Positions 13,901-50,479 of a DNA stretch of 64,000 nucleotides are shown in pieces. Both the position numbers and the translations under genes were made by a program. Under the pieces are notes generated by a model. It was not told where the DNA came from. It saw only the letters and a list, made by a program, of their open reading frames with translations, and did not search any database. Source of the stretch: a virus (lineage: Duplodnaviria; Caudoviricetes); the IMG/VR virus record IMGVR_UViG_3300037067_027616, positions 160,001-224,000 of that record; one strand, 5' to 3'. How positions within the stretch are numbered: position 1 is the first letter of the stretch; the number at the start of each line of letters is the position of its first letter.

Positions 13901-13985
13901 TGGCGGAGGATGAGAGGGTCGAACTCCCACGACCTTTCAGTCACGTGTGTTCCAGACACGCCACTTACCATTAGTGTAATCCTCC
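13901..13985 (-). tRNA. tRNA-Ser(GGA)
   Basis: Cloverleaf, loop CT-GGA-AC, long variable arm, CCA. Confidence 0.9.
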
Positions 13986-13995
13986 ATTAATTCGG

Positions 13996-14078
13996 CGGCG
14001 GGCAGAGGACTCGAACCCCTACACCCTTTCGGGCGCCTGATCTCGAATCAGGTGCATTACCAATTATGCAAGCCCGCC
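13996..14078 (-). tRNA. tRNA-Ser(CGA)
   Basis: Loop TT-CGA-GA, long variable arm; ends CCG, no encoded CCA. Confidence 0.88.
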
Positions 14079-14329
14079 TTCCAGCATTTTCTTGACCTTG
14101 TTGAGATCCTCTTCAACTTTTGACATGTCATTGGCAACCATGTCAAGTGCATCGATTTCGTTCTCGTTGAAATTTGTGTCAGACTCCACCCGGCTCTCCT
14201 CCACATCAACATATTTGTCTACGAACACCACCAAATTCGAAAAGTCCTCGATGGCACCTTTGAATTTGGATCGCAGTTGGGCCTCGACAAGTAATTTTTC
14301 TATTTCATCTGCCATAGGATCCCACACAA

Positions 14330-14421
14330 TGGTGGAGGGAGCAAGATTTGAACTTGCGGGAGAGTTGCCCCTCCTCTAGTTTTCAAGACTAGCGCGATAA
14401 ACCAGGCTCTGCCATCCCTCC
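14330..14421 (-). tRNA. tRNA-Ser(TGA)
   Basis: Loop CT-TGA-AA, long variable arm, CCA. Confidence 0.92.
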
Positions 14422-14572
14422 TCATTTATGAATCGTTCTTTGCACCATGCACTCGACACAAAACCGTATGGCTCGTATCCTGTGCAGGATGTCCTCGAGC
14501 AGGCGGTCGGCTTCCTCCGCCTTCTTCGAGGCCTCGATGTCTTTGTTCTTTGGCTGTGTGTCTTCCATGAAG

Positions 14573-14815
14573 TCAACCTCCAGCGCCTTTGGAACTCTTG
14601 GTATTTTTGCCCCACTCCACGTATCCATAACACGCGATTGCCAAGAATACTGCAAATAACACGACATTGTACAATTCATTCTTGTAGTATCCTACAGCCA
14701 CGAGTATCACGTTGGCGGCGATGTAGAACATAAAACCGATGCGGTTCCTGCGCGCGTTGAGGAGCGCCCCAATTACCCCGAGAAGACTTCCGATCCACCC
14801 AAACACATCAGTCAT
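14573..14815 (-). CDS. Small PnuC-like (nicotinamide riboside transporter) membrane protein
   Basis: Three hydrophobic segments; N..L and YGY..W pattern. Confidence 0.55.
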   Translation of the reverse strand: MTDVFGWIGSLLGVIGALLNARRNRIGFMFYIAANVILVAVGYYKNELYNVVLFAVFLAIACYGYVEWGKNTKSSKGAGG

Positions 14816-15054
14816 TTCAACGGCCCCCGAAGATGACCCACAGCCAGCACACCAAGGATATTAGGAACGGGTAAAAAAGTGGGAACGTTGCTTTTTTGCC
14901 TTTCATTGCGTCATTCAGTTGCTCTAACTTTCCCCAATTGGTGCTCGTGTAACATACAAAGAGTAACAACCGAAGTATGAAAATAAGACCGAACAGTATA
15001 CCGAGCGACCAAGATAAAGCGTTCAAAAAGGCCACGACTTCCTCCTTGAATAAT

Positions 15055-15138
15055 TGGTGCGCCGAGAGAGCATCGAACTCACACGGGTTTCCCCACTGGC
15101 TCCTAAGACCAGCGCGTCTGCCATTCCGCCACCGGCGC
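15055..15138 (-). tRNA. tRNA-Leu(TAG)
   Basis: Loop CT-TAG-GA, GGCGGAATGGCAGACGC D arm, CCA. Confidence 0.93.
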
Positions 15139-15480
15139 TCAATCAAATACCCCGGGGTCGAATTTTGAATTCTTGTAACTGTAACATGTCAATATTACTT
15201 TTTCGCATGGGTCATATCGCGGTCCGTATTCATGCACGACCACTATGAGATTGCCATATTTGTAATACACTGCGTCCTTGAGATACTTTATGGTTTGCCT
15301 CAAACTCTTTTTGGGGGACACAGGAATCAAATCCCCGCGTAAATAAGCGTTTATAAGTCGTTGCTTGGTCAACACCTCATTGATTTTATCGTCTATGCGT
15401 GTACGATATTGCTTGATCGCATGTGGGGCGACTATTACAAATTTACGTAGCTTCGACAGTTGACGATAGGTGACCATCAT
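15139..15480 (-). CDS. Hypothetical protein
   Basis: ORF coupled to the HPr gene. Confidence 0.55.
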   Translation of the reverse strand: MMVTYRQLSKLRKFVIVAPHAIKQYRTRIDDKINEVLTKQRLINAYLRGDLIPVSPKKSLRQTIKYLKDAVYYKYGNLIVVVHEYGPRYDPCEKVILTCYSYKNSKFDPGVFD

Positions 15481-15749
15481 TCCACCATAAAATTCTCGAG
15501 GATGTCAGCTATTTCTTTGTATGCTTTTTCCTCTTCGGGGCCGCGCACCACAAGACTGACTGTTTTTCCTCCGTCCACCGCGAGCGACAGGAGACTCAAG
15601 ATGCTTTTGGCATCCGCCTTCATGCCGTTCTCCGGGTTCTCAATGGTTATTTCAGTGTTGTCGTACTCCTTGGCCCTTTGACAAATGCACAGCGAAGGTC
15701 TTGCGTGTAGTCCTATCTCGCTGCGTAACCTTACCGTTCCCTTTACCAT
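15477..15749 (-). CDS. ptsH: HPr phosphocarrier protein
   Basis: GLHARP (His15) and ADAKSILSLLSL (Ser46). Confidence 0.9.
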   Translation of the reverse strand: MVKGTVRLRSEIGLHARPSLCICQRAKEYDNTEITIENPENGMKADAKSILSLLSLAVDGGKTVSLVVRGPEEEKAYKEIADILENFMVE

Positions 15750-15765
15750 TTCAACCTTTCTTCCT

Positions 15766-15841
15766 TGGAGCCGATGAAGGGACTCAAACCCCCGACCCCC
15801 GCATTACAGGTGCGGTGCTCTATCAGCTGAGCTACATCGGC
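15766..15841 (-). tRNA. tRNA-Thr(TGT)
   Basis: Loop CC-TGT-AA (C33), T loop TTTGAGT, CCA. Confidence 0.88.
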
Positions 15842-15846
15842 TTATG

Positions 15847-16131
15847 TCAATATTCGTAATGTCCACGATCTTGATCACGCTCTTCTCTATCCCGGCGGCT
15901 CTTCCTCTTCTGCGGGAATTTGTCGAGCATCGCCTTCCTGATTGCATCCTTACGTTTCCGGCGTTTCTGCTCACTCGGTTTCTCGTACGAGCGCCTCTTC
16001 TTCAGTTCTGCGAGGATACCTGCGGACTCGGCGACCCTTTTGAACCTCCTGAGCATCCTCTCGATATTCTCCATACCGCCCTTGGTGTCTACTACTCCGT
16101 ACATTTTTGCTCCTTTGAATGTGTCCTTCAA
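15847..16131 (-). CDS. rpsU: Ribosomal protein bS21
   Basis: ENIERMLRRFKR...GILAELKKRRSYEKPSEQKRRK. Confidence 0.88.
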   Translation of the reverse strand: MKDTFKGAKMYGVVDTKGGMENIERMLRRFKRVAESAGILAELKKRRSYEKPSEQKRRKRKDAIRKAMLDKFPQKRKSRRDREERDQDRGHYEY

Positions 16132-17042
16132 GCCCTGCGCATCAAATCCGATACGAGGTGCTTTACTACTGGTGGTGGAAAACCGTTTCCTATACCCTCG
16201 AGCATTTTCGTCCTCGAAAGTACATTAATATCATATTCGTCACCGAGTCCTTGCAACCTCGCCGCAAGTCTGGGGCCACACATGTGAAGTTCCCCCGAGG
16301 GCATGACCACAACCCCATAAGGAACCCCTCGTTTGTAGTTGCTGACTACCGTACCAGCCACCACGTCAAAACGTAACGGTGGATGTCTCTTGCACCTTTT
16401 CGGGTCGCGAAACCAATACTTTTTCTCGTTGTAACTCATGGGACGCGTCAAAGGTTGCGTGTCCTTTTCAGGAGAATCGTAGAGATATTCCCGGACAAGG
16501 CTGGGTTTTTCCCAAGGTTCCTCCGGGTATGTCACGTTCCACTGTATCTTTTTAGAGCAGAGCATAACAACACGGCGCCTGTTCTGCGGCACACCATAAT
16601 CATAGCAGTTTATTTCTTGGCAGTCTACTGCGTACCCGCGTGCTTTCAAATCATTTATTATGGTACATAAATAGCTTTTAAACCGCGAAAGCCCAAAGCT
16701 GTTCTCGATAAGTACGTGATCCGGGTTGCACCGATCAATTGCCCTGAAGAAATGCGGGAAGGTGTTGCGTGAATCGTCTTCCCCCTTTGTGCCAAATCTG
16801 TTGGCACCTGGGGAAAAAGCCTTGCAGACGGGACCTCCGCTGAGAAGGTCACATTCAGTTATCTCGTATTTGTCGACATCTGCGCATATAGCTACGGGAC
16901 TGAGGTACATTGGTTGGCTGTTGTAGGCTTGCACAAACTTCGGGTCGATCTCGCAAGCCCCGACTACATTGGCCCCTGCCTGTGTCATACCCCAAGAGGA
17001 TAGTCCTACGCCAGAGAAGATTTCGACTACACGCATGCTCAC
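16128..17042 (-). CDS. C5 DNA cytosine methyltransferase
   Basis: EIFSGVG, GGPVCKAFS, IEN, YGVPQNRRRV, ARLQG, IGN. Confidence 0.85.
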   Translation of the reverse strand: MSMRVVEIFSGVGLSSWGMTQAGANVVGACEIDPKFVQAYNSQPMYLSPVAICADVDKYEITECDLLSGGPVCKAFSPGANRFGTKGEDDSRNTFPHFFRAIDRCNPDHVLIENSFGLSRFKSYLCTIINDLKARGYAVDCQEINCYDYGVPQNRRRVVMLCSKKIQWNVTYPEEPWEKPSLVREYLYDSPEKDTQPLTRPMSYNEKKYWFRDPKRCKRHPPLRFDVVAGTVVSNYKRGVPYGVVVMPSGELHMCGPRLAARLQGLGDEYDINVLSRTKMLEGIGNGFPPPVVKHLVSDLMRRA

Positions 17043-17051
17043 CTGTCCATT

Positions 17052-17139
17052 TGGTGCCCGAACCCGGACTTGAACCGGGACGAGGGTTTACCCCCAAGAG
17101 GGTTTAAGCCTCTTGTGTCTTCCATTCCACCACTCGGGC
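17052..17139 (-). tRNA. tRNA-Leu(TAA)
   Basis: Loop CT-TAA-AC, long variable arm, CCA. Confidence 0.92.
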
Positions 17140-17157
17140 AAAACCTGAAACAAAATA

Positions 17158-17772
17158 CTACTTGCCGGCGACGATGTAAACCCCGGGGGTGCCGTATCCT
17201 TCATAATTCTCGGCCTCCCGGATGCTGTACCCTATCCCCCGCATTTCCTCTACGAGGGTCCTTTTTGAGTATCCGCACGTGTGGAATTGCCCCGGGTCCA
17301 CCGGTGGATCCTCAACATCGCCGCATTCCATGTCGGCTTGGTAACCGAAAAGTGTGTATAAAAACCATCGACGCGAATTCGCGTTCAAGTCCCCACGAAG
17401 AAGGACTCCCATTATCATGTCTATGTCCGGCATGCTGAGGAGCAGGGTGCCCCCAGGCTTAAGAACACGGTGCCAATCTTTCAATGCCAACTTTGCTCTT
17501 CGTATCGGGAGATGCTCCAATGAATGAGCCGAAAAAAGTCCGTCTGCCGTGTTGGGTTTCATCGGTAGCTTGTAGATGTCAGCCTTCAACACTGATGGGA
17601 GCCGTGTATATCGATCGATGTTCACAAACCCTTGCAGAATACGCTTTCCGGAGCCAAGATTTAGGTACACCCCCGGGACATCCACCGCCCTTTTAAACAT
17701 GTCAGCCTCAATCGATTTGAGTCTTTCTCGGGCGTCCACATAGGACTTTGGCAAGTTAAAGGGGGTGCCCAT
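17158..17772 (-). CDS. Class I SAM-dependent methyltransferase (type 11)
   Basis: LNLGSG, NID, HSLEHL, RVLKPGG. Confidence 0.85.
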   Translation of the reverse strand: MGTPFNLPKSYVDARERLKSIEADMFKRAVDVPGVYLNLGSGKRILQGFVNIDRYTRLPSVLKADIYKLPMKPNTADGLFSAHSLEHLPIRRAKLALKDWHRVLKPGGTLLLSMPDIDMIMGVLLRGDLNANSRRWFLYTLFGYQADMECGDVEDPPVDPGQFHTCGYSKRTLVEEMRGIGYSIREAENYEGYGTPGVYIVAGK

Positions 17773-17882
17773 ATTGTGAATATACTAACTCGGTGTCCTT
17801 TTGTAAACATCGATCCACCAATAAGTTGTTTATATCCCCTTCCGTTATGCAGGCGGCACACCAGTAACCTGAGGCACGCATC

Positions 17883-18257
17883 ATGGAAGAACAAGAATTA
17901 AAAGAAGTAATCCAAAAGCAACAGGTCGAATCCTGTGATGAGAGGTATGTCCTTGAAAAGGTATATTGGCAACGCACGGTCAAAATGCTTGTCATGATCG
18001 TGTCACTGCTGATCACATTATCAGGAGGCATAATCGCTTGGGGTTTCAAGACTTCCGCAGAGGTTACAAACAACACCCAAGGCAGACGGGAAATCGAACG
18101 CAGGATTAGTGACATCGAATCCTTTTACAGAATTGCCAACGAAAACTACAGCAATGTTGCCAAAAACCAATTGGAAGCCCTACAATACTCACAGAGATTG
18201 AGCAGAAAATTGGACATCCTCATAGAACGGGCCGGGGCAAAATATTTGGAAGAGTAG
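17883..18257 (+). CDS. Single-pass membrane protein with coiled coil
   Basis: Hydrophobic MLVMIVSLLITLSGGIIAW; lone plus-strand gene in the tRNA block. Confidence 0.6.
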   Translation: MEEQELKEVIQKQQVESCDERYVLEKVYWQRTVKMLVMIVSLLITLSGGIIAWGFKTSAEVTNNTQGRREIERRISDIESFYRIANENYSNVAKNQLEALQYSQRLSRKLDILIERAGAKYLEE

Positions 18258-18260
18258 GTG

Positions 18261-18336
18261 TGGTGGAGCCTGAGAGAGTCGAACTCTCGGTCTCCTGCGT
18301 GCAAGGCAGGCGCTTTTCCAATTAAGCTAAGGCCCC
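18261..18336 (-). tRNA. tRNA-Ala(TGC)
   Basis: GGGGCC acceptor with G3:U70, loop CT-TGC-AC, CCA. Confidence 0.93.
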
Positions 18337-18344
18337 ACAATGTT

Positions 18345-18421
18345 TGGAGCCCACGAGTGGATTCAAACCACCGACTTTTTCCTTACCAAGGAAATACTCA
18401 TATCAACTGAGTTACGTGGGC
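18345..18421 (-). tRNA. tRNA-Thr(GGT)
   Basis: Loop TT-GGT-AA, T loop TTTGAAT, CCA. Confidence 0.88.
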
Positions 18422-18728
18422 TTATCTACCGTATTTGATGCTTAACGATGCCGCTCCGGCTACGCACATCAAAAAAAGATCGTATGTCCTGATCGCATAT
18501 GTGGGTATCTTGCGTAGTTTGTGAATCGTATTTTTAAGTTGTTCTTCGTCCAACAGCAGCGGAACTATCGTCTTGTGAACTCCGTCATACACCATAAAAT
18601 GCACAAAACCTGGATACATAGTTCCTTCAGAAGCAACCGTCCAGGCTCCTTCCGTGTGTGCATACTCATACACAATTAATGATTCCTTTGTCTCCATGTG
18701 TGTGGAGAAAAATGAATGTGTTATTCGG

Positions 18729-18804
18729 TGGCAGGGTGAGAGGGCATCGAACCCCCAGCCTCAGGTTTTGGAGACCTGCGCTCTGCCGATTGAGCTATCA
18801 CCCT
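18729..18804 (-). tRNA. tRNA-Trp(CCA)
   Basis: Loop CT-CCA-AA, CCA end. Confidence 0.93.
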
Positions 18805-20212
18805 AAAAGAGATATGAACTGATCGTAATTTTGTTTTGATCCGCCCACGCCCTCATAATTCGTTGCTCTTGAGGAGTAGGCGATCTGTTGCTCATACCAC
18901 GTGCTTGACAGATCTGCCCTTTGGTGAGTTCCATGGTGACCATCCTCCACGAGCCTTCCTTGTCAAACAACCTCAACGACCATATCGAGGATCTTCCCGA
19001 TGAGCAGGCCCATGTGTATGATGCCACGCAATGTTTCATGGCCCGGCCTTCATCGTACAGTTCCTTCGAGGTCAAAAGTTCCTTGATAATCCAAACCCTG
19101 CGGTTCTGCCCAGTTCCTTCCTCGAGCCGGAAGTCAGACACCACGCTGTGACTCCAAGAGGACGCACCTTTTTTAGCCTTTCCAAGTTCTTTGTGCCACC
19201 GTTCAACTTGATCCATCAAGGTATTGGCGTTCCGGCCGTTCATGCTGAAGTTTGGTTGTTCGGGATTTTGAGTAACGATGTTGCCTCGGTCGTCATATTC
19301 ATTGCGTATCTCATATTTAATGTGGCATATGTAATCGATGATCGGACCATATTGATTCGAGTCGAGCATGGGATTTGCAATGAGAAATTTTATAAACGAC
19401 TGCCGGAACTCATCATCAAACCGTTGCATGCGAGTGCCCCGCAAACGGGATGATATCCTCGTGTCCCCGCCGAGGGCAACGACCTGGCCATGTAAGAGGG
19501 CATCTATTACAGAGAAATACCCGGGGGCTTCAAGGAAATGGTGCGCCATCTTTTTCGTCAGCGGGAACGGAAGATTTCTCGCCGTCCGTATGTTGTTGCC
19601 GTTCCCTATGTGTATGTACCACTCTTGATGGAGTTGTTCATCAGCCTCCCAAACGCTGTCCATGAAGGTTGGTATGGGATACTTCGTGAAAAGGTGCCGT
19701 AACAACGATGATATCTGCCGTTGCAAGCTGTGGCTCTTCACCACCCACGTGGTGGGATCCTTTATCCAATACGGGGACCACCTCGCGATTTTTATGAGCA
19801 TCCTGATCGCTTGGGTGTCTTTAAGGATCTTTGACCGGTCATTACCTTTTCCAGACACGGAGTCGACAAGTTTGATTAAAGATCTTTTTGTGTCTTCGTC
19901 TAAAACAGACCTGTGATCAAACAGCGCGTTAGAAACAGAGGAAAATTCACACGATTTAGTTGGGTCTTGCAGGACCCTGTGAATGGCTTCCCGTTCGTTT
20001 CGAGGGGTGTGACTGCTTTTTTCCAAAGCTTTGATAGCCTTGTCTGCTTTGTATATCGAGGCCTCCCGTGCAATTTGCCAAGGGGTTTTATACCACGTGG
20101 CCTCAAACCCTGCTTCCTGGCACCACTCAAGGTACTTCGGCATCTCCAAACCGAAGCTACGAAGTATGACTTGTTCGGCGCTCTCCTTGTTGTACTTTTT
20201 CTGTACGGCCAT
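18803..20212 (-). CDS. PcfJ-like domain protein
   Basis: WH...L..EG..M.HCV.SY...C..G.SSIWSLR...T.E....Q.RG..N. Confidence 0.8.
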   Translation of the reverse strand: MAVQKKYNKESAEQVILRSFGLEMPKYLEWCQEAGFEATWYKTPWQIAREASIYKADKAIKALEKSSHTPRNEREAIHRVLQDPTKSCEFSSVSNALFDHRSVLDEDTKRSLIKLVDSVSGKGNDRSKILKDTQAIRMLIKIARWSPYWIKDPTTWVVKSHSLQRQISSLLRHLFTKYPIPTFMDSVWEADEQLHQEWYIHIGNGNNIRTARNLPFPLTKKMAHHFLEAPGYFSVIDALLHGQVVALGGDTRISSRLRGTRMQRFDDEFRQSFIKFLIANPMLDSNQYGPIIDYICHIKYEIRNEYDDRGNIVTQNPEQPNFSMNGRNANTLMDQVERWHKELGKAKKGASSWSHSVVSDFRLEEGTGQNRRVWIIKELLTSKELYDEGRAMKHCVASYTWACSSGRSSIWSLRLFDKEGSWRMVTMELTKGQICQARGMSNRSPTPQEQRIMRAWADQNKITISSYLF

Positions 20213-20223
20213 AAGGTCACCTT

Positions 20224-21111
20224 CTACAGGATGACGATTCTGACATCAGGTACTCCCGCAGGATCCGCCTCTATGACTGCGGCGATTAGTTTGGAGGTTT
20301 CCACCCACGGGTGTCTCATGAGGTAGTCTTCTCTCATGGTTTCCATCCTCGAGGGGTCGATGACGGCGGCGGACAGATACTGTCCAGGTTGCACGACAAC
20401 GGTTCTGCCGATGGTGGCTGTACGTATTTTTGTCCTCCAGGGGCATTCATGTATGTGTCCGGACAATACCATGTACGGCTGCTTTTCCTCAATCCATTCT
20501 TTGATGGCGTTTGACCCGACCTCGCGGCCATCTATGCACACATCCAACCCGACCAATTTGGGAGGGGAATGTATGGCTATTATCTCGTTCGGCTTCGCCT
20601 TTCTCGACCGCAAATCATCTTCGATGGTGCCTTTTTTTCGGAAGTATTCTTTCACATCTATTATGGGTACCAACCCGTGTTCGGTGTCTTCTGTGGGTAT
20701 CTGTATATACGATTCAGGTTTCCACCCCTTGTGGTCATACTTGCAGGCGGTCTTCAACCCGAACGGATAGTCAGGCACGTACGGGTATCCAGTAAACGTA
20801 AACCCCTCGAAATCGATGGGTTTCTCATCGATGAGATCCCCGCATCTTTCCCGGTAGAGGGGTTTGCGTGTCCACAAGTCATCATTGCCAAACATGGCCA
20901 TGAACTTTATGTCCTTATCTCCGCACTTCTTGATGAACCCCGGCAAGAATTTCTTTATGAATTCCTTCTGCCGCGGTTGCATGGAGTAACCTTTTGGGAG
21001 TATGTCGGCTCCCACGTGAAGGAGTTTTGCTCCTTCAGTTACGCATAAATCGAGAGCCTTTGCGTACTTCCCCTCATCCCCATGTAAATCTGTGGCATAA
21101 ACGAACTTCAT
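20224..21111 (-). CDS. Metallophosphoesterase (calcineurin-like)
   Basis: TDLHG, GAD, GNDD, HSPP, SGHIHE. Confidence 0.88.
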   Translation of the reverse strand: MKFVYATDLHGDEGKYAKALDLCVTEGAKLLHVGADILPKGYSMQPRQKEFIKKFLPGFIKKCGDKDIKFMAMFGNDDLWTRKPLYRERCGDLIDEKPIDFEGFTFTGYPYVPDYPFGLKTACKYDHKGWKPESYIQIPTEDTEHGLVPIIDVKEYFRKKGTIEDDLRSRKAKPNEIIAIHSPPKLVGLDVCIDGREVGSNAIKEWIEEKQPYMVLSGHIHECPWRTKIRTATIGRTVVVQPGQYLSAAVIDPSRMETMREDYLMRHPWVETSKLIAAVIEADPAGVPDVRIVIL

Positions 21112-21137
21112 TCGTCACCCCATTCAAAAGGTAAGAT

Positions 21138-21166
21138 AATATACTATTTTGAATATCTTTTGTCAC
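21138..21166 (-). promoter_or_regulatory. Possible internal promoter within tRNA block 1
   Basis: GTGACA-17-TATATT. Confidence 0.45.
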
Positions 21167-21175
21167 CTTGAATTT

Positions 21176-21254
21176 TGGTAGGATCGGTGAGATTTGAACT
21201 CACGACCAGCTGCTTATAAGGCAGCTGCTCATCACCAGGCTGAGCTACGATCCT
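21176..21254 (-). tRNA. tRNA-Ile(TAT)
   Basis: Loop CT-TAT-AA, CCA. Confidence 0.88.
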
Positions 21255-21303
21255 ACAAACCGGAGTGTGCTGACAATGAAGCATGTCCATACTTTGATAA
21301 TTG

Positions 21304-21376
21304 TGGAGCTGAGGGGGATCGAACCCCTGGCCTCGACATTGCGAACGTCGCGCTCTCCCAGCTGAGCTACAGCCCC
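21304..21376 (-). tRNA. tRNA-Ala(CGC)
   Basis: GGGGCTGTAGCTCAG, loop TT-CGC-AA; no encoded CCA. Confidence 0.92.
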
Positions 21377-21397
21377 GTATTAGATTCTTAAAATTTG

Positions 21398-21694
21398 TCA
21401 TGCGGCCCAAGGACGTATATCAGAAAGATCTTCCTGCCAAGGTCTGCAGTATCTTTTCTCCTGCATAGTCCTTTTGTCTTTGTTCCAACGACTTCTACGT
21501 GGGTTTCCGCAGGAAGAACAAGAACACAATTTGGTCGTGTTCCTTCTCAAGTAACCCCAACGTTCGAGAAGTTTCTTCTTCTGTTCTTCGGTACACCATG
21601 TCCACCGGTATGAACTGGTTTCACCGCGAGCACGTGCGTCACCTTTCCACTTTCCTACGAGGAAGCGTTCCCGGCGATTGCGGGGATGAGGCAT
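21398..21694 (-). CDS. Small basic Arg/Lys-rich protein with CSCxxCGNPR motif
   Basis: Strong SD (TAAGGAGG) inside a hairpin; upstream mini-ORF. Confidence 0.65.
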   Translation of the reverse strand: MPHPRNRRERFLVGKWKGDARARGETSSYRWTWCTEEQKKKLLERWGYLRRNTTKLCSCSSCGNPRRSRWNKDKRTMQEKRYCRPWQEDLSDIRPWAA

Positions 21695-21797
21695 CAGTAA
21701 CCTCCTTATGAGTTAAATACTGATTGCCATCATTTTACCCCTTTGTTGGAAAAGTGATTACACTATCATCTTTTAAAAATGAGTAGATGATTAATTT

Positions 21798-21873
21798 TGG
21801 TGGAGCTGGCGAGGGTCGAACTCACTACCTCCTCGTAGCCAACGAGGCGCTCTCCCAATTGAGCTACAGCCCC
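21798..21873 (-). tRNA. tRNA-Ala(GGC)
   Basis: Loop TT-GGC-TA, CCA. Confidence 0.92.
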
Positions 21874-22020
21874 ACATTGATAATATACTATCAAAAACAT
21901 TGAAATGGACTGCGGTCTCCGGTTCGCCTATGGGAGCCACCTGTGCTTGATAACGGGAGAGGTGGGCGCCCACGTCACCGCCATTCCGGTTCACACGATA
22001 CCCGCAGTCCATTTTTGTTT

Positions 22021-22098
22021 TGGAGCCAACGACTGGACTCGAACCAGCAACCCCCGCATTACGAATGCGGTGCTCTACCAAATTGAAGCTACGTTGGC
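22021..22098 (-). tRNA. tRNA-Thr(CGT)
   Basis: Loop TT-CGT-AA, CCA. Confidence 0.92.
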
Positions 22099-22099
22099 A

Positions 22100-22176
22100 T
22101 GGTGGGCGACAGAGGGCTCGAACCTCTGATCTCCGCGATGTGGACGCGGCGCCTTAGCCGACTGGGCCAGTCGCCC
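22100..22176 (-). tRNA. tRNA-Val(CAC)
   Basis: Loop TC-CAC-AT (C33), CCA. Confidence 0.88.
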
Positions 22177-22186
22177 CTGAAGATTG

Positions 22187-22275
22187 TGGTGGGAGGTGAT
22201 GGAGTCGAACCACCCGAGCCCGTTAAAGGCAACAGCTCTACAGGCTGTCCCGCTACCCCTACGGTATAACCTCCC
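22187..22275 (-). tRNA. tRNA-Tyr(GTA)
   Basis: Loop CT-GTA-GA, long variable arm, CCA. Confidence 0.92.
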
Positions 22276-22286
22276 ATAAATAAAAA

Positions 22287-22492: not shown

Positions 22493-22497
22493 GGGAT

Positions 22498-22583: not shown

Positions 22584-22627
22584 ATGTTCATAATTTCACG
22601 AATGTTCACGTAAACGTGAACAAAAAT

Positions 22628-42351: not shown

Positions 42352-42426
42352 TGGTACGCCTGCCAGGACTTGAACCTGGGTAACTGGTTTCGTAGACCAG
42401 GGCCTGATCCGCTAGGCTACAGGCGC
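42352..42426 (-). tRNA. tRNA-Arg(ACG)
   Basis: Loop CT-ACG-AA, CCA. Confidence 0.92.
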
Positions 42427-43062
42427 ACAAGTTTTGTCCCACTCGGCTCTCAAAAAATCGTACAAACCTTTTATCTTTTGTAGGGCTTTTGTGTCTGTGA
42501 TAACCATCTTGAATGTTCCATAGTTACTTCTTCTAGGACTTACGTTACCCCCTTTTTCATAAGAATGAATATCGTCAACTTTTATTTTCATTTGGTCCGC
42601 CCAATATTTTTTCATTTCTTCAGTAACACTGTGACCAATTAAAACGTATCTTGGGTTTTTTACAGAAAATAATGTAATGTATTTGGCAAAAAGTTTCATT
42701 ATTGATGGGTCAGTGTTTGTAAAGTCTATGGTGTTTTTAGATTTTTTGTAACCTTCTGCTAAATACATTACAATAAAATCCCTAACTCCTTTGTTTGAAA
42801 GTATCTCTTCAGCATTGTCATAGCCTTCTCTGTAACAGCCATCTCTGATTTTCCTATACTTTTCAACTAATACCACGACTGCTACTTTCCTAGCACGCTC
42901 AAGAGACTCGCTCCTTGTTATCCTATTGAAACCGAAACCACGAAGCCAATAAAACACTGTAGATTTTCTTCGCCCTAAAATAGATGCTATCTCGTCAATT
43001 GTTTTACCGCTTCTCTTCAGTTCTACAGCTTTTTCTTTCTCCTGCTTGCTGCCTCTTCTCAT
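42412..43062 (-). CDS. HTH plus LAGLIDADG-like putative homing endonuclease
   Basis: N-terminal HTH (G.TI.EIA..LG..KSTV..W); MYLAEG.K...F.N.D motif; visibly AT-richer than its flanks; stop lies inside tRNA-Arg. Confidence 0.6.
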   Translation of the reverse strand: MRRGSKQEKEKAVELKRSGKTIDEIASILGRRKSTVFYWLRGFGFNRITRSESLERARKVAVVVLVEKYRKIRDGCYREGYDNAEEILSNKGVRDFIVMYLAEGYKKSKNTIDFTNTDPSIMKLFAKYITLFSVKNPRYVLIGHSVTEEMKKYWADQMKIKVDDIHSYEKGGNVSPRRSNYGTFKMVITDTKALQKIKGLYDFLRAEWDKTCAPVA

Positions 43063-43134
43063 TTGAACCTCCTATCGGATGGTGTAGGCCACACGAATGA
43101 AAGTTCAAATAGAAGATTATTACAAATTGTCACA

Positions 43135-43172
43135 TCGTAGCCTGGTATTCTATCCAGTTGAGCTACGGACGC
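43135..43172 (-). pseudogene. 5' half of a tRNA-Arg(ACG), truncated just after the anticodon
   Basis: GCGTCCGTAGCTCAACTGGATAGAATACCAGGCTACGA followed by unrelated AT-rich sequence. Confidence 0.8.
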
Positions 43173-43179
43173 ATGTTTC

Positions 43180-43449
43180 CTACAATTTCTGTCTTCCCTC
43201 CACCAACTTGTCATCGATGATGATGTACCCTTGTTGTGAAAACGGCTTGTGTATGATGCCCCTGAATCGTAACCCTTGCGATTTGAGGGCACATATCCAT
43301 TCGGTGTTTTCCGGCCGACACGTAAACAGCCACACTTCATTTCCTTCAGAGATGATGGTGTTGACCTTTTCCACCACCCCCGGGAACAACTCGTCAGAGC
43401 CACTAGGTACGATCGTGTTGTCCACGTCCAACAGGTAGCACAACCCCAT
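43180..43449 (-). CDS. Small HAD-like protein
   Basis: LLDVDNTI, FTCR, KP....IIDD. Confidence 0.65.
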   Translation of the reverse strand: MGLCYLLDVDNTIVPSGSDELFPGVVEKVNTIISEGNEVWLFTCRPENTEWICALKSQGLRFRGIIHKPFSQQGYIIIDDKLVEGRQKL

Positions 43450-43714
43450 TCTAGCCCCTATTCTATATCTTCAAAGGTTCAACGGTAACGAACTTCTTTC
43501 CTATGTGGCTCATGGTTTTTTCCTCATACCCACATTTCTTGCATTTGACTTTCCCAGACCACGGTCCCCACGCGAGCGCCGAAATGACTACGATTTGGTC
43601 GTTACCACATTTGGTGCATGTGTCACCGTTCGGGGCTGGTCGTTCCACAGGAAGCATGGGCTTCAAGACGATTTCTTTGACGGCTTCTAACGTTTTCCTA
43701 TTCACAAATGCCTC

Positions 43715-44302
43715 CTACCCTACGAAAAAGTAGTCCACTGTCTTATCCCCGTACACCGACTCCGCCGCCTTCTCCTTTGAATCGTAAGAAGCCAGGCGGT
43801 ACATGTTTGACATTACTCTCCATTGGTCATCTTCATATACGAGAAGTATTGCGTGTCCTCGCCTTTTACCGTCCTTGCGTCCGTGGCACACAGCCATGAC
43901 ACATTTTTTATTTCCCCGCAGGACTTCCCACGACAAGAGTGCAAAATCCTCACAATCTCCACCCCATTTTGCTGCCGTAAGCCAAGGCTTGCTGTAGCAA
44001 TTAATTTTGTCTTTCCGCCACACAAAACCATATTCTGAATACCAAGCCTTCAACGTGATCGTATCATTTACTTTCTTGCGGGCCTCTTTTATCAAGTGCA
44101 TGCCCCACTGTTTCCGTTTGGCATTGAGCAGGCCCTCGATACCTCCCGACAGAAAGATGTAGGGTTTTGCCGTCAACGGACCGTACCACTTGATAAACCA
44201 TCTCCACAACCTCACGACTTGACCTCTCCTGTTTCGATCGGTATAATAAAAAGATCCGGCATGGTATCTACCTTTTCGTACTGCTGATGACGAGCAAGCC
44301 AC
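43715..44302 (-). CDS. Transglutaminase-like cysteine protease domain protein (true start probably downstream)
   Basis: GDCEDFA...GHAIL. Confidence 0.6.
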   Translation of the reverse strand: MACSSSAVRKGRYHAGSFYYTDRNRRGQVVRLWRWFIKWYGPLTAKPYIFLSGGIEGLLNAKRKQWGMHLIKEARKKVNDTITLKAWYSEYGFVWRKDKINCYSKPWLTAAKWGGDCEDFALLSWEVLRGNKKCVMAVCHGRKDGKRRGHAILLVYEDDQWRVMSNMYRLASYDSKEKAAESVYGDKTVDYFFVG

Positions 44303-44541
44303 TTTACCACCACGTGAACCTCATGCTCCCCGAGTTCTGCCTGCCAATAGGAGTTGTCACCGTCTGTAAGCCTTTGTGACCCGTTTCTCTCCGCTATCTC
44401 CTTGAGGAACCCCAACATGTCCATCATCCAGGAGTGCCTTGAAGAATTCGTGTCTGCGATGTTTGGTACCCGGATGAGGTTCCCTTCAAACCAATACCTC
44501 AATGTTTCCTTTTTTCTTGCCACTGTGCACCCCTTTTCTTT

Positions 44542-44619
44542 TGGTACCCGCGGTGCGACTTGAACGCACGATCTTTGCCTTCGGAGGGCAATGTTTTGAT
44601 CCAACTAAACTACGCGGGC
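44542..44619 (-). tRNA. tRNA-Arg(CCG)
   Basis: Loop CT-CCG-AA, CCA. Confidence 0.92.
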
Positions 44620-44810
44620 ATTGTTCGCTCATCCCGTATTTTCTTTTCAACCAACCCCTTTTTCCCATTTCAGCACACAATCCTTGGAACATTTTTCGGT
44701 CGTCTCCGGAAAGACCAAACTCGCGGCCTTTAGTAAACAGTCCCCGGAAGTCATCAAACAAATATTCATCAGACATCTTCGACAAGTCTTCCACAATGTC
44801 CTTCAATCTA

Positions 44811-44887
44811 TGGTGGGCCCGGCCCGGCTTGAACGGGCGACCTCCTGCATGTCGAGCAGGCACTCTAGCCAACTGAGCTACGAGCCC
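44811..44887 (-). tRNA. tRNA-Val(GAC)
   Basis: Loop TC-GAC-AT (C33), CCA. Confidence 0.9.
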
Positions 44888-44893
44888 ACGTAT

Positions 44894-44970
44894 TGGTACC
44901 CCCTCCCGGAGTCGAACCGGGTACCTACTGATTAAGAGTCAGTTGCTCTAGCCAAATGAGCTAAGGAGGC
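44894..44970 (-). tRNA. tRNA-Lys(CTT)
   Basis: Loop CT-CTT-AA, CCA. Confidence 0.93.
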
Positions 44971-45379
44971 ATGAATTATCCGTTGAACTCCTCTTCGTTC
45001 TCTTTTTCTTTGGTTTCGTCCACACTATCCACGAGTACCTTCTCGATGCTGTCACAAAATTTACGTATGCTCGATACCAACAATTCCCTTTGCGCCTTGT
45101 TGACCTTTTTCATGAATTCACCGAAAATGGCGTTGAACTCCTCATCTGCAAACATTTTCTTTTCCATCTCGGAAGCAATAGTTCCGAGAGCATTGATTTG
45201 CAACTCACGCCATTTCCAAACCATGTCGCGCATAAACTTTTTAGGATCTTCTGTCAGCACGGCCATCGTCTTCAGCACAGACATCGCCACGAAGAACGTG
45301 AAGTCGTTTCTGAGTTCCCTCAATGCCTCTCCACTCACGTTCTCCTCGGTACCCATTCATCGTACCTTTCGTTTTGATT

Positions 45380-45457
45380 TGGTAGGCGCGAGAGGACTTG
45401 AACCTCCGACCCTCGGTTTGTAGGACCGATGCTCTGTACCAACTGAGCTACGCGCCT
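45380..45457 (-). tRNA. tRNA-Val(TAC)
   Basis: Loop CC-TAC-AA (C33), CCA. Confidence 0.9.
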
Positions 45458-45834
45458 TCAATATCTTCTCCTTCTTGAGTTTTCCGCCGGCCATTTCAGA
45501 CCAATACTCTACATCGAGGTCGGGTTTCTCCGCCTTGATGTCTTCAGCTATCTTGCGTCCCATCTCGTACAGTTTCTTCTCGTACTTCTTGAGGACACAG
45601 TAATTGGGTCTTCCCGTCGCCACGTCATCGTAGTAGCGCTCAAATTTATTCAAATCATTTGTGATGCTCTTTGACAACCCAATATCTTCTGGGTCGATCA
45701 TAAAACCCTTGTCCAGGCTCCACAAGCACGAAGAACTGAAGTCAGGCATGACCTTCACTCCCGGGACTTTGTACCGTTTTGACTTTGATTCCTTTGACAT
45801 ATGTTCAAGCCTTTTATTAACAGGTTAGACTTTC

Positions 45835-45909
45835 TGGTACCCCCGGTTGGATTCGAACCAACGACCCCCATCTTAAAAGGATGGTATTCTACCTCTGAAT
45901 TACGGAGGC
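45835..45909 (-). tRNA. tRNA-Lys(TTT)
   Basis: Loop CT-TTT-AA, CCA. Confidence 0.93.
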
Positions 45910-45910: not shown

Positions 45911-45953
45911 CAAAACAAGAAGGCCCCCGGTGACTTTGTCATCCGGGGGCCTT
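45911..45953 (-). terminator. Attenuator terminator of tRNA block 4
   Basis: AAGGCCCCCGG-ATGAC-aaa-GTCA-CCGGGGGCCTT followed by CTTGTTTT. Confidence 0.85.
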
Positions 45954-45980: not shown

Positions 45981-46046
45981 CTACACGACCCCCGATGGCG
46001 TCACCCGGCGCTTGGATACGACTCGTTTTGCCTTCAGTGAGAACAT
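45981..46046 (-). CDS. Leader peptide 4 (MFSLKAKRVVSKRRVTPSGVV)
   Basis: AAG/AAA/GTC/GTA/CGG/CGC/CGA cluster; contains the antiterminator strand. Confidence 0.85.
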   Translation of the reverse strand: MFSLKAKRVVSKRRVTPSGVV

Positions 46047-46071: not shown

Positions 46072-46100
46072 AATATACCACAACCTGACAGGTTTGTCAA
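46072..46100 (-). promoter_or_regulatory. Promoter of tRNA block 4
   Basis: TTGACA-17-TATATT with extended TG. Confidence 0.88.
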
Positions 46101-47482: not shown

Positions 47483-47557
47483 TGGTATCCTCACCGGGAA
47501 TCGGACCCGGATCTAGAGTTTAGGAAACTCTTGTTCTGTCCGTTGAACTATGAGGAC
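47483..47557 (-). tRNA. tRNA-Arg(CCT)
   Basis: Loop TT-CCT-AA; atypical T loop TCCGATT; CCA. Confidence 0.88.
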
Positions 47558-47615
47558 ATAGTTGAATATACCATTTCGTAACCCTGATTTACAGCACTTT
47601 TCGAAGACATAAATG

Positions 47616-47691
47616 TGGTGCGGCAGCCGAGACTCGAACTCGGGGCATTCAGCTTGGGAAGCTGACATTCTACCAACTGAATTACTGCCGC
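47616..47691 (-). tRNA. tRNA-Gly(CCC)
   Basis: Loop TT-CCC-AA, CCA. Confidence 0.92.
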
Positions 47692-47696
47692 ATATT

Positions 47697-47771
47697 TGGA
47701 GCGCCAGCCGAGGCTCGAACTCGGGACCCCTACCATGGCAAGGTAGTATTCTACCACTGAACTACTGGCGC
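47697..47771 (-). tRNA. tRNA-Gly(GCC)
   Basis: Loop TT-GCC-AT, U73, CCA. Confidence 0.92.
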
Positions 47772-48189
47772 TTTCTGTTTTCATCAATGATTTTGTGCTC
47801 CCGCTCCCACCCGTCCACATATGTCTGTAACTGTTTTTCCACCCAATCGTGAACTTTCTGGGAAAAATCCACTCCATATTCTTTTTTAGCCTCTTCAAAT
47901 CCGACCCGCCACGCTTCCTTCTCAATGTCCGGTGTGTAGTATTCAACAGAAGATGCAAAGTCATCTGGCATGAGAGCGTGACCCAACTCATGGAAAAATG
48001 ACGCCACCTTCAACTCATCATCCTCATAAATCCCTAAATAAATTTTGGGGTGGCAGATGTAACTTTTGTTTTCGTATTCTTCAAGACCATTGGCACTGCA
48101 GTAATCGTCTCCAGGTACGACTTGAACAACCTCATATCCGTATTTGGCGGCTACTTTTTTGAAATCGGATAGTGCCCACGAAATTAAAA

Positions 48190-48265
48190 TGGAGCGGGAG
48201 ACGAGGCTCGAACTCGCGACCTTCAGATTGGAAATCTGAGACTCTACCAACTGAGTTACTCCCGC
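48190..48265 (-). tRNA. tRNA-Gly(TCC)
   Basis: Loop TT-TCC-AA, U73, CCA. Confidence 0.93.
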
Positions 48266-48278
48266 GTATTTTCATATC

Positions 48279-48356
48279 TGGTACGCCTGGCGAGACTCGA
48301 ACTCGCGACCCTCAGATTAGAAGTCTGATGCTCTGATCCAGCTGAGCTACAGGCGC
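48279..48356 (-). tRNA. tRNA-Arg(TCT)
   Basis: Loop CT-TCT-AA, CCA. Confidence 0.93.
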
Positions 48357-48361
48357 TCATG

Positions 48362-48868
48362 TTATCTCAACCCATACAAGTACAAAAGTGCCGCATACCC
48401 CGAGGGAAGTAACTGAAGAGGTTTGTCGACCTCCTTCGAGTACTTCACGGCCATCTCTAAAAAATACCGCGCGTGGAGCATCGCCTCTATCCATCTTCGC
48501 GGGTCTTTTTTAGGATCCAAGCCATCCTCCATAATTTCTTTGAACACGGAACATCGATTTTTCCAACCGTACTTGTATAGGCCTTCCAACTCCTTCAGCA
48601 CCTTGCGTGTCACAACCACCGCGGATCCAACTTTATAGGAACCGTGGTACAGCCTGTAAACTGTGTCCTCAATTTCCCAATGGCTGTTGATGTTTTCGAG
48701 AAGTTCCTCAAGTACCTTTTGTTTTTTATGGAGGTTCTTGATGAGAACGCGTTGCCCTTGGTCGTTGCTGCGCTTCTCCTTCATGGCAGCCGCGCTACTG
48801 TTGCGCAGACCTTTCTCACAGAATTTTTTGAAATCCTCGATGCTAATCTTTTTTGCTTTGTCATTCAT
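48362..48868 (-). CDS. Hypothetical protein
   Basis: YR.YH.S.KV...EA.LHARYFLEMAVKY...LPSG.AALLYLY.LR. Confidence 0.6.
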   Translation of the reverse strand: MNDKAKKISIEDFKKFCEKGLRNSSAAAMKEKRSNDQGQRVLIKNLHKKQKVLEELLENINSHWEIEDTVYRLYHGSYKVGSAVVVTRKVLKELEGLYKYGWKNRCSVFKEIMEDGLDPKKDPRRWIEAMLHARYFLEMAVKYSKEVDKPLQLLPSGYAALLYLYGLR

Positions 48869-49153
48869 GGAATTTTTGTTTCTCCGTGAGATTCGGAATC
48901 CATGTGCGGATCCTCGCAGAGTACAACGAATTCTCCAGTACCTTCGAGAGCCTCAAGTTCCAAATCATCGAAGTCATTCTCTTGGAAGTTCGTCCCGTCC
49001 CACCAACGGCACATGTACGTTATCCCGTGTTTTGTCACCAGTACTCCGCACACTCTGCCGTCCTGTTTTCCATCGACGATGTGTACCCTTTGGCCCGGGC
49101 TGAACTTTGATTTTACAACCATGTGGCTCCCCTGTGGTGTGTGGTGTATGGTG

Positions 49154-49227
49154 TGGGCCCACCAAGAGTCGAACTTGGGACAGGCGGATTATGAGACCGC
49201 TACTCTAACCAACTGAGTTATGGGCCC
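49154..49227 (-). tRNA. tRNA-Ile2(CAT), lysidine-type
   Basis: GGGCCCA acceptor, loop CT-CAT-AA; leader 5 carries three ATA codons; no encoded CCA. Confidence 0.8.
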
Positions 49228-49248
49228 GTTGATTCCTGCTCATACACC

Positions 49249-49277
49249 AATATACCATTCAGCGGGACACGTGTAAA
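49249..49277 (-). promoter_or_regulatory. Possible internal promoter in tRNA block 5
   Basis: TTTACA-17-TATATT with extended TG. Confidence 0.55.
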
Positions 49278-49303
49278 CTTGATACATTTGTGAAACAGGT
49301 ATG

Positions 49304-49377
49304 TAGCCCGGACGAGATTCGAACTCGTGATTTTCACAGTGAAAGTGTGATGGATTAGACCGCTACCCTACCGGGCC
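49304..49377 (-). tRNA. tRNA-Glu(TTC)
   Basis: Loop CT-TTC-AC; no encoded CCA. Confidence 0.9.
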
Positions 49378-49382
49378 ATACT

Positions 49383-50063
49383 TTATGCCAAATCACTTAT
49401 AAAGCCTTGATTATACCGCTTATATGATGTTCGTCTTCCGTTGGAGTGGTTCACGACCATGTCATCTCGCACCCGTATAGTACGGACCTTGTCACCCCGC
49501 ATACCACTTCCGACCTGCCCTCGCCTGGCATCATTCACGTTTCCGGTCACTTTTGACGTGAGCCTGTGGTGGATCCTCTGGCGCAACACGCTCATCGCTT
49601 GTTCCTTATTTTGGTGCTGGCTACGCTCCGATTCGCATCTCACAATAATGCCCGTCGGGATGTGCTTCACCTGTACGGCAGAATCCGTCACGTTTCGGTG
49701 TTGTCCGCCTTTTCCGGAACCGCGCGCTATTGAGATCTCTATGTCACTACACGGTATGTCCACCTTTACCCCGGGGATCTCTTCGAGGACGGCCACTGTG
49801 ATGGTGGAAGTCTGTACACGGCCGCGCTTCTCTGTCGGAGGTATCCTTTGCCACCTGTGACCGCCCGGCTCGTTCTCAAACGTTCTTGCGGCGTCTTCTC
49901 CCGATATTTTGATGCAGACGTAACCTGGTCGCATCTCCAGGACACGCATCTAATATCCCTTCAAAACGCACACCTTTCCATAAATCCTGAACTGATCTTC
50001 AACTAAAAGCTTTGCATCGTCTCCGCCTTCGGCGGCTCTGATTTCCACTATGATTGATTGCAT
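49383..50063 (-). CDS. Short RF1-like peptide chain release factor with in-frame TAG at codon 38
   Basis: GGAGG SD, MQSIIVEIRAAEGGDDAK...KGY*MRVLE..., E.G.HR.QRIPPTE..GRVQTS, GGQ, SQ..NK. Confidence 0.85.
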
Positions 50064-50199
50064 GGTACCCTCCGTTATAAAACGCCCTGGTGTTCCCTAC
50101 GTCCGTCCTGATAGCCCGGGCATCGGGGCATAGGAACGGTAACCTTTCGGTGAGACTTGTTCGCCGAAAGAAAACTCGGTTGCACCTTTTGGCTTATAT

Positions 50200-50277
50200 T
50201 GGTAGCCCGGATGAGGTTCGAACTCATGAGTCTCCGCCTTGAGAGGGCGGTGTCCTAGCCAATTAGACGACCGGGCC
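50200..50277 (-). tRNA. tRNA-Glu(CTC)
   Basis: Loop CT-CTC-AA, CCA. Confidence 0.93.
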
Positions 50278-50324
50278 TTACATTCAAAAGTGCTTTTGTC
50301 GTCAGCAGACTGTCAAAGATCAAC

Positions 50325-50359
50325 GAAAAAACCCCGCCAGGCTTGGCCTGACGGGGTTT
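50325..50359 (-). terminator. Attenuator terminator of tRNA block 5
   Basis: AAACCCCGTCAGGC-caa-GCCTGGCGGGG followed by TTTTTT. Confidence 0.88.
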
Positions 50360-50381
50360 GTGTATAAGTACAATACTCCCG

Positions 50382-50441
50382 TCAGGTGGGTATTCTTCCC
50401 TCCCTACCTTCTTCAGCTATTCTGACGGTTGCGTTTATCAT
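50382..50441 (-). CDS. Leader peptide 5 (MINATVRIAEEGREGRIPT), near-leaderless
   Basis: ATG about 10 nt from the -10 box; ATA/AGA/AGG/GAA/GAG/GGA/GGT cluster; antiterminator overlaps the TGA. Confidence 0.85.
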   Translation of the reverse strand: MINATVRIAEEGREGRIPT

Positions 50442-50450
50442 AGGATATTA

Positions 50451-50479
50451 AATATAACACAAAAAAACGGTGTTGTCAA
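50451..50479 (-). promoter_or_regulatory. Promoter of tRNA block 5
   Basis: TTGACA-17-TATATT with extended TG. Confidence 0.88.

Follow-up and report, generated by a model that had tools for sequence, protein, structure and literature searches.

The tRNA genes of a Caudoviricetes virus (IMG/VR virus record IMGVR_UViG_3300037067_027616, 466,729 bp) are, as judged from their sequence, probably controlled by five ribosome-mediated leader-peptide transcription attenuators, each placed before a polycistronic tRNA operon and each using as control codons the codons read by that operon's own tRNAs. The genes lie in a 64,000-nucleotide stretch, here called the window, that corresponds to bases 160001–224000 of the record. 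On the minus strand between 13901 and 50277, 47 tRNA genes were called by ARAGORN, with none on the other strand, and 46 of the 47 fall into five blocks with 44 distinct anticodons. Under ordinary wobble rules these 46 block tRNAs suffice for 61/61 sense codons.

Layout and codon content of the five units

All five units are on the minus strand and share one layout, in which a promoter is followed by an open reading frame (ORF) of 19–40 codons, an antiterminator segment, a U-tailed terminator and a tRNA block. This five-fold architecture had been described in an earlier reading of the sequence alone (the sequence-only reading), and every promoter, ORF, antiterminator, terminator and tRNA block in it was located. 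The promoters are all exact matches to TTGACA-N17-TATATT. Downstream of each is one short ATG-initiated ORF, preceded by an AGGAG-type Shine–Dalgarno (SD) sequence in four of the five cases (L4, L3, L2 and L1). The GC-rich terminators, at −23 to −31 kcal/mol, are the top five U-tailed hairpins on the minus strand of the region 13,901–50,479, and the first tRNA follows within 6–160 nt of each, with no promoter in between. Four components by which a leader-peptide attenuator is recognized are present, namely a short ORF behind a promoter, control codons matched to the product, an intrinsic terminator and a competing antiterminator.

Genome-wide, a consensus promoter no more than 300 nt upstream of a strong terminator was found at the five tRNA units and at one further site within a coding sequence. 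This sixth candidate, at genome position 265822, was rejected, as the hairpin 220 nt downstream of its promoter sits inside the coding sequence of a signal-peptide protein.

The features of the five units, named for their predicted roles, are as follows; duplex energies refer to pairing of the antiterminator with the terminator 5' arm.

Unit 5
50451..50479 (-), promoter, TTGACA-N17-TATATT, hexamers conserved in the metagenome relative L069
50382..50441 (-), leader ORF L5, 19 codons, MINATVRIAEEGREGRIPT; control codons AGA, GAA, GGT, AGG, GAG, GGA and ATA (three times)
50374..50387 (-), antiterminator overlapping the stop codon, duplex −20.3 kcal/mol; 13/14 arm bases paired upstream in the truncated minimum-free-energy (MFE) structure
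50329..50359 (-), terminator, about −27 kcal/mol, with U tract
47483..50277 (-), tRNA block 5: Glu-CTC, Glu-TTC, CAT (Ile2-like), Arg-TCT, Gly-TCC, Gly-GCC, Gly-CCC, Arg-CCT and one ORF
Unit 4
46072..46100 (-), promoter, TTGACA-N17-TATATT
45981..46046 (-), leader ORF L4, 21 codons, MFSLKAKRVVSKRRVTPSGVV, with SD; control codons AAG, AAA, CGA, GTC, GTA, CGC, CGG and GTG
45986..45998 (-), antiterminator, duplex −20.2 kcal/mol
45920..45953 (-), terminator, U-tailed hairpin
42352..45909 (-), tRNA block 4: Lys-TTT, Val-TAC, Lys-CTT, Val-GAC, Arg-CCG, Arg-ACG, with interspersed ORFs
Unit 3
39963..39991 (-), promoter, TTGACA-N17-TATATT
39860..39940 (-), leader ORF L3, 26 codons, MFLFVQNPNPNQQPRNKSPLGFGRTL, SD AGGAG; control codons CAG, AAC, CCA, CCC, AAT, CAA and CCG
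39875..39889 (-), antiterminator, duplex −24.6 kcal/mol, z −5.2
39805..39836 (-), terminator, U-tailed hairpin
38170..39777 (-), tRNA block 3: Asn-GTT, Pro-TGG, Gln-TTG, Pro-CGG, Gln-CTG, Pro-GGG
Unit 2
28684..28712 (-), promoter, TTGACA-N17-TATATT
28579..28650 (-), leader ORF L2, 23 codons, MRTTIGISIIFSAIDFDSMDIAM, SD AAGGAG; 16/22 codons read by its own block
28569..28579 (-), antiterminator immediately after the stop codon, duplex −21.7 kcal/mol
28521..28553 (-), terminator, U-tailed hairpin
26085..28436 (-), tRNA block 2: Phe-GAA, Asp-GTC, Met-CAT, CAT with 1:72 mismatch (initiator-like), Ile-GAT, Ser-GCT
Unit 1
23836..23864 (-), promoter, TTGACA-N17-TATATT
23691..23813 (-), leader ORF L1, 40 codons, SD AGGAG; exact Watson–Crick cognate codons for 20/20 downstream tRNAs
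23702..23715 (-), antiterminator, duplex −21.8 kcal/mol
23633..23668 (-), terminator, about −31 kcal/mol, the strongest on the strand
13901..23466 (-), tRNA block 1: 20 tRNAs (Cys, His, five Leu, Tyr, Val-CAC, three Thr, three Ala, Ile-TAT, Trp, three Ser TCN)

The sequence-only reading had counted a matching codon in the block's own leader for 45/46 tRNAs, a figure that was reproduced here. Counted as distinct anticodons, the own leader covers 20/20, 5/5, 6/6, 6/6 and 6/8 for blocks 1 to 5. Block 5 rises to 7/8 if the start ATG or, for a tRNA-Ile2, the three ATA codons are counted for its CAT tRNA, and L5 contains no GGG codon. This CAT tRNA carries C4:G69 and C5:G68, putative lysidine-synthetase determinants. 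When leaders were permuted against blocks, a comparison proposed in the sequence-only reading, the true pairing ranked first, without ties, among 120 permutations by each of three measures.

Coverage was also compared with the phage's own codon usage, giving P = 5.5e-5, 0.026, 0.022, 0.0067 and 0.07 for blocks 1 to 5, and the corresponding enrichment of own-block codons gave P = 0.009, 3e-8, 5e-5, 1.5e-4 and 0.01. The 39 positions of leader 1 are filled by 35 different codons (P = 8e-5 in comparison with coding windows), so that this leader reads like an inventory. With its synonymous codons resampled, it contained on average 12.2 exact cognates and never reached its actual 20/20 in 3000 draws. 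Jointly, the five leaders list 50 codons and all 20 amino acids.

Leaders and tRNA blocks in other phages

Relatives were found via the histidine phosphatase gene that lies between blocks 5 and 4. In what follows the window's own genome is G000, and other G-numbers and the L-numbers of contigs such as L069 denote IMG/VR or metagenome relatives. Three large IMG/VR contigs with 42–46 % identity in the phosphatase, G001 (329.8 kb, 56 tRNAs), G002 (416 kb) and G009 (258.6 kb), carry big tRNA arrays whose blocks are directly preceded by strong terminators, each with a short ORF upstream. These contributed 4, 4 and 5 further units respectively, so that 13 were added to those of the window for a total of 18. 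In every genome the true pairing of leaders and blocks was the unique best permutation (1/120 for G000, 1/24 for G001, 1/24 for G002 and 1/120 for G009), and the own leader had the highest count of cognate codons in 124/151 cases of an anticodon in a block.

The block layout of G009 is the same as in the window, and G001 and G002 group their tRNAs otherwise, with the leader codons following. Arg-CGN, Asn, Glu/Gly and Lys are the tRNA families relocated together with their leader codons. Arg-CGN is grouped with Lys and Val in G000 (leader KAKRVVSKRRV) and G009 (leader VKKVKVVVKRRK), and with Pro and Gln in G001 (RRPQPQQPRR) and G002 (RQTQPQQPRQPR). Asn stands with Pro and Gln in G000 (QNPNPNQQP) and G009 (NQNNPNPQQP), and with Phe, Ser-AGY and Cys in G001 (CNSNYFTSSFSN). 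Glu/Gly and Arg-AGR form a separate block in G000 (EEGREGR) and G009 (EGREGEGEG); in G001 (LLEGEGYDKT) and G002 (LLEGKEGYDKT), Glu/Gly lie inside a block of 13–23 tRNAs. The Glu/Gly block of G009 has gained Thr-CGT, and an ACG codon is present in its leader. Leader content thus tracks block content across four genomes, which is the co-variation that the sequence-only reading had suggested looking for in related phages.

Conservation is also seen at closer range. In the metagenome relatives L068, L069 and L070 (61–77 % identity), the control codons, antiterminator and terminator are kept. L069 shares the L5 core AGA/GAA-GGT-AGG-GAG-GGA, and the G009 leader again contains the peptide motif EGREG. 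Orthologues of the leader L4 were found in L068, L070 and G009, and of L3 in G009. No unit was found within 330 nt of the Lys tRNA of L072.

Pooling the 18 units allowed the codon match to be examined by frame, by position and at the level of synonymous codons. In frame, 50 % of leader codons were own-block codons and 95 % of anticodons were covered, against 21–24 % and 52–60 % in the other two frames of the same nucleotides. By position, own-block codons made up 0/36 at codons 2–3, 241/388 (62 %) from codon 4 to the antiterminator and 13/79 (16 %) in or after the antiterminator. They are therefore concentrated in the central stretch, and only there would a stalled ribosome leave the antiterminator free. 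With the peptides fixed and synonymous codons resampled from the codon usage of G000 for all four genomes, exact-cognate coverage was 122 against 101.4 ± 4.6 (z = 4.5) and own-block codons were 254 against 226.5 ± 5.0 (z = 5.5), and neither observed value was reached in 3000 draws.

A cultured close relative was not found: by megablast, GenBank phages had no match to 23300–28800, and tblastn with the neighbouring phosphatase returned only distant phages at 30–34 % identity. A search with the alignment of G001 and G002 leaders retrieved only G001 itself, and a 220-aa ORF of the region gave no pattern matches. The same design was found in phiCbK (JX100813), an unrelated cultured phage, in which three tRNA blocks are immediately preceded by annotated rho-independent terminators. 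Short ORFs, among them the annotated gp083, end upstream of these terminators and cover 2/2, 9/9 and 7/7 anticodons of their own blocks, and the true pairing was the best of six permutations. phiCbK therefore offers a cultured system for experiments during real infection.

A further candidate is the single putative leader of G004, a relative with 46 tRNAs in one array (L057 array coordinates 1466–1653 of the reverse strand). It has 41 codons and includes all 20 amino acids, as do 0.4 % of coding windows (P about 0.004), with an antiterminator across the stop codon and a terminator 28 nt beyond. No SD precedes it, and the array offers no tRNA for its His, Cys and Phe codons; this leader was kept as a candidate.

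Two group I introns were observed in the tRNA region of G009 (L058 2944–3239 and 12433–12677, minus strand; 79 and 67 bits, above the gathering score). These may interrupt tRNA genes, which would explain the tRNAs seemingly missing from its blocks.

RNA structure, proposed mechanism and alternatives

Structural evidence was obtained by folding each unit separately. In the window units the terminator 5' arm can form a duplex of −20 to −25 kcal/mol with a segment of 9–15 nt that lies between −27 and +12 nt of the stop codon, and in all five this segment is the MFE partner of the 5' arm once the 3' arm is omitted. Across the four genomes, the truncated MFE structure pairs 9–15 nt of the terminator 5' arm upstream in 18/18 units, despite sequence differences between units. 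The antiterminator lies at −27 to +16 relative to the stop in these units, and the gap between stop codon and terminator is 21–31 nt in 18/18. Truncated transcripts adopt the antiterminator fold when no part of the leader is blocked. The full-length structure computed for unit 1 pairs the antiterminator segment with the SD region.

Under the proposed mechanism, host sigma-70 RNA polymerase would initiate at the consensus promoter and a ribosome would load on the leader. If all listed codons were decoded promptly, the ribosome would arrive at the stop codon and, as the geometry suggests, cover the antiterminator segment (−27 to +12 nt of the stop), and the polymerase would meanwhile transcribe the terminator 21–31 nt further on, so that the hairpin forms and transcription ends. 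If any listed codon were decoded slowly, with charged tRNA scarce whether host- or phage-made, the ribosome would stall upstream, the free segment would pair with the terminator 5' arm and the polymerase would enter the tRNA block. Each unit would thereby supply the tRNAs it senses and so keep the decoding capacity for its codons under negative feedback. As no strong 1:2 helix was seen, an untranslated leader is predicted to read through.

Near-consensus promoters inside the blocks bear on how completely the leaders could gate tRNA synthesis:

49249..49277 (-), internal promoter candidate in block 5, TTTACA-17-TATATT, 50 nt upstream of the CAT tRNA; conserved in L069 at 4913
21138..21166 (-), internal promoter candidate in block 1, GTGACA-17-TATATT
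17779..17807 (-), internal promoter candidate in block 1, TTTACA-17-TATATT

In L069, which keeps the promoter at 49277–49249, the adjacent phosphatase has 77 % identity. This ungated promoter probably also serves six of the eight block-5 tRNAs, and distal tRNAs may be made regardless of the attenuator. The conserved internal promoter therefore suggests that gating by the attenuators is likely partial, with a basal and an inducible level. The sequence-only reading had named internal promoters as a possible refutation of its interpretation. Its core, codon-matched leader attenuators in which stalling leads to read-through, is still supported, and what has to be qualified is the extent of the gating.

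Several further observations weigh against leader-peptide attenuation, alongside these internal promoters within blocks 5 and 1 and the conservation of the block-5 one. The leader ORFs were chosen by SD or homology and not blind, and five units of the relatives contain nested or alternative ORFs. L5 has no SD and starts 9 nt past the −10 hexamer with a 5' untranslated region of about 3–5 nt, making it near-leaderless, and leaderless-type initiation would therefore be needed. In units 1 and 3 the antiterminator lies 9–27 nt upstream of the stop, so that it would be only partially covered by a ribosome at the stop. Neither a conserved 1:2 helix (anti-antiterminator) nor a pause hairpin that would synchronize ribosome and polymerase was seen in the folds. 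The own block has no tRNA for about 40 % of the codons in the central part of the leaders, and the synonymous-codon null rests on one genome's codon usage. In addition, tRNA clusters in the relatives G003, G006 and G008 are leaderless, with plain promoters or no convincing terminator.

A broader proposal, which we hold tentatively, is that leader attenuation with codon inventories is a general and unrecognized form of tRNA-gene control in unrelated phage lineages, namely the huge-phage clade studied here and the phiCbK-like Caulobacter phages. Five sensors would then watch approximately the whole code and switch on isoacceptor-specific replacement sets upon cuts by anticodon nucleases or host shut-off, combining translation-based surveillance with counter-defence.

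It is also conceivable, though we consider it unlikely, that the same hardware was selected for counter-defence as such, the leaders being tripwires for host anticodon nucleases of the PrrC, RloC, PARIS or colicin type, as the sequence-only reading had proposed beyond its core. Cutting of a host isoacceptor would stall the leader ribosome and induce the phage block with the replacement. Phage tRNAs are known to offset anticodon nucleases from work on T4, T5 and PARIS, and the division of the sensors by isoacceptor (Ser AGY from TCN, Arg AGR from CGN) fits anticodon-specific threats, as does the full 61-codon tRNA set; the odd structure of several tRNAs, for example their long variable arms, points the same way. 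However, nothing in the sequence ties the units to any nuclease, plain supply-and-demand feedback accounts for the same features, and host shut-off or a codon-usage mismatch would equally stall the leaders.

A more improbable alternative is that the units read amino-acid supply through tRNA charging, as in trp or his, and serve the whole region, interspersed protein genes included, as a switch for starvation or timing. Leader attenuators inherently sense charged tRNA, as established for trp and his, the blocks do include ORFs (a methylase, phosphatases and a PcfJ-like protein), and without a 1:2 helix any loss of translation would switch on all units. Yet amino-acid starvation is not relieved by extra tRNA, and a match that extends to isoacceptor and synonymous codon (z = 4.5–5.5) and follows tRNA genes between blocks would be superfluous for an amino-acid sensor. 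It is very improbable that small early peptide genes are followed here by ordinary unconditional terminators, insulators or elements for processing and stability, with a non-regulatory codon match and tRNAs made from the internal promoters (candidates for which are present, one of them conserved), as this leaves unexplained the block-, frame- and position-specific codon match with its co-variation in four genomes and phiCbK, the 18/18 antiterminators with their fixed 21–31 nt spacing, and the position of the first tRNA just past each terminator with no promoter between.

Known systems and further features of the tRNA region

The predicted attenuators resemble the leaders of enterobacterial amino-acid operons (ilvGMEDA for Ile/Leu/Val, thr for Thr/Ile, trpL, hisL, leuL and pheL) in having a short ORF with control codons close to the promoter, an intrinsic terminator ahead of the structural genes and a mutually exclusive antiterminator set by ribosome position. 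As in the multivalent ilvGMEDA and thr leaders, more than one kind of control codon is present per leader. In contrast to these systems, the phage-borne units would regulate tRNAs rather than biosynthetic enzymes, and whereas enterobacterial leaders use runs of one codon, the phage leaders inventory up to 20 isoacceptors, mostly in one or two copies each. The phage units also differ in that no clear 1:2 anti-antiterminator or pause helix was seen in them and no Rfam leader family matches, and, unlike in trp, an untranslated phage leader is predicted to read through. A permissive cmscan of 13000–52000 (E up to 1) gave no match at the five units to Rfam leader families (His_leader, Thr_leader, Leu_leader, Trp_leader and others) or to T-box.

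In the pheST attenuator of E. coli, the pheM leader peptide adjusts phenylalanyl-tRNA synthetase to the decoding speed of its own codons. The phage units would likewise tune a component of the decoding machinery to the reading speed of its own codons. In pheST the product is a synthetase and one amino acid is sensed, whereas the phage product would be the sensed tRNA itself, closing a direct loop for many codons at once. T-box riboswitches similarly use transcription attenuation to report specific tRNAs by isoacceptor, but they bind uncharged tRNA directly and without translation, whereas the phage units lack a T-box fold and would sense via the ribosome.

Of relevance to the SD-less L5, mycobacterial leaderless short ORFs encoding polycysteine are reported to be Cys-responsive attenuators (bioRxiv 10.1101/834739). 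These too are reportedly short ORFs with little or no 5' untranslated region acting as sensors of ribosome speed, but they sense one amino acid and control protein-coding operons.

The large tRNA set, here complete for 61 codons, is shared in kind with the arrays of T4, T5, mycobacteriophages and huge phages. Those arrays are described in the searched literature as expressed from ordinary promoters, in contrast to the codon-matched leader control predicted here. In full-text literature searches, with most subscription journals outside their scope, no account of tRNA genes under leader-peptide control emerged, whether for phages or for other systems, in agreement with the sequence-only reading, which had known of none. 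To our knowledge, control of phages' own tRNA genes is essentially unstudied, the arrays usually being treated as constitutive codon-usage supplements or counter-defence cargo, and the five sensors with 46 tRNAs and 50 monitored codons for all 20 amino acids would be the most extensive instance that we know of.

If correct, leader attenuation of the tRNA blocks would provide a self-adjusting supply in which each tRNA set is made only until its codons are read fast enough, and would allow a full 61-codon tRNA set to be carried without paying for it in every host. The phage would also have at hand a means of detecting when host defences or host shut-off deplete tRNAs. Classical attenuation, known for amino-acid supply, would then extend to the supply of tRNA, with as many as 20 inputs and any slow codon turning the block on. 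Because the units are short, have consensus sigma-70 promoters and yield sharp predictions, they are directly testable in E. coli reporters, and the leaders could act as compact natural decoding-speed sensors for chosen codons.

Besides its tRNAs, block 1 contains interspersed metallophosphoesterase, PcfJ-like and C5 methylase ORFs and an RNase P-like RNA, and the protein genes of the tRNA region also include the histidine phosphatase. The RNase P-like RNA (22288–22491, minus strand) lies between tRNA-Tyr and tRNA-Leu-CAA and matches RF00373 with 54.8 bits (gathering score 84), E of about 1e-14 and 204 nt covered. It keeps the core motifs GAGGAAA and ACAGAA and lacks most of the specificity domain, and may represent a phage RNase P RNA reduced to a minimum. 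The tRNA region of the relative G009 yielded no counterpart.

The one window tRNA outside the five blocks is an amber-reading tRNA(CTA) at 35861–35937 (minus strand; designated Pyl by ARAGORN). A CTA tRNA is likewise present in G001 and G009, and G001 also has an ochre-reading TTA tRNA. TAG is the stop codon of the leader L4 and of several leaders of the relatives; as these leaders end in TAG, amber suppression would carry ribosomes into the terminator. The genome's two other tRNA-like genes (ATT and TAA; genome positions 411456–411917, plus strand) stand directly behind a consensus promoter, with neither leader nor terminator.

Several block tRNAs have variable regions that are long for their type (26181–26369 and 39687–39777, minus strand): Ile-GAT of 89 nt, a CAT tRNA of 93 nt and Asn-GTT of 91 nt. 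The 93-nt CAT tRNA has a 1:72 mismatch as in bacterial initiators. In block 4, at 43132–43172 (minus strand), where no tRNA was called, a hairpin resembles the 5' half of a tRNA with acceptor stem and D arm, and may represent a tRNA fragment or a split gene.

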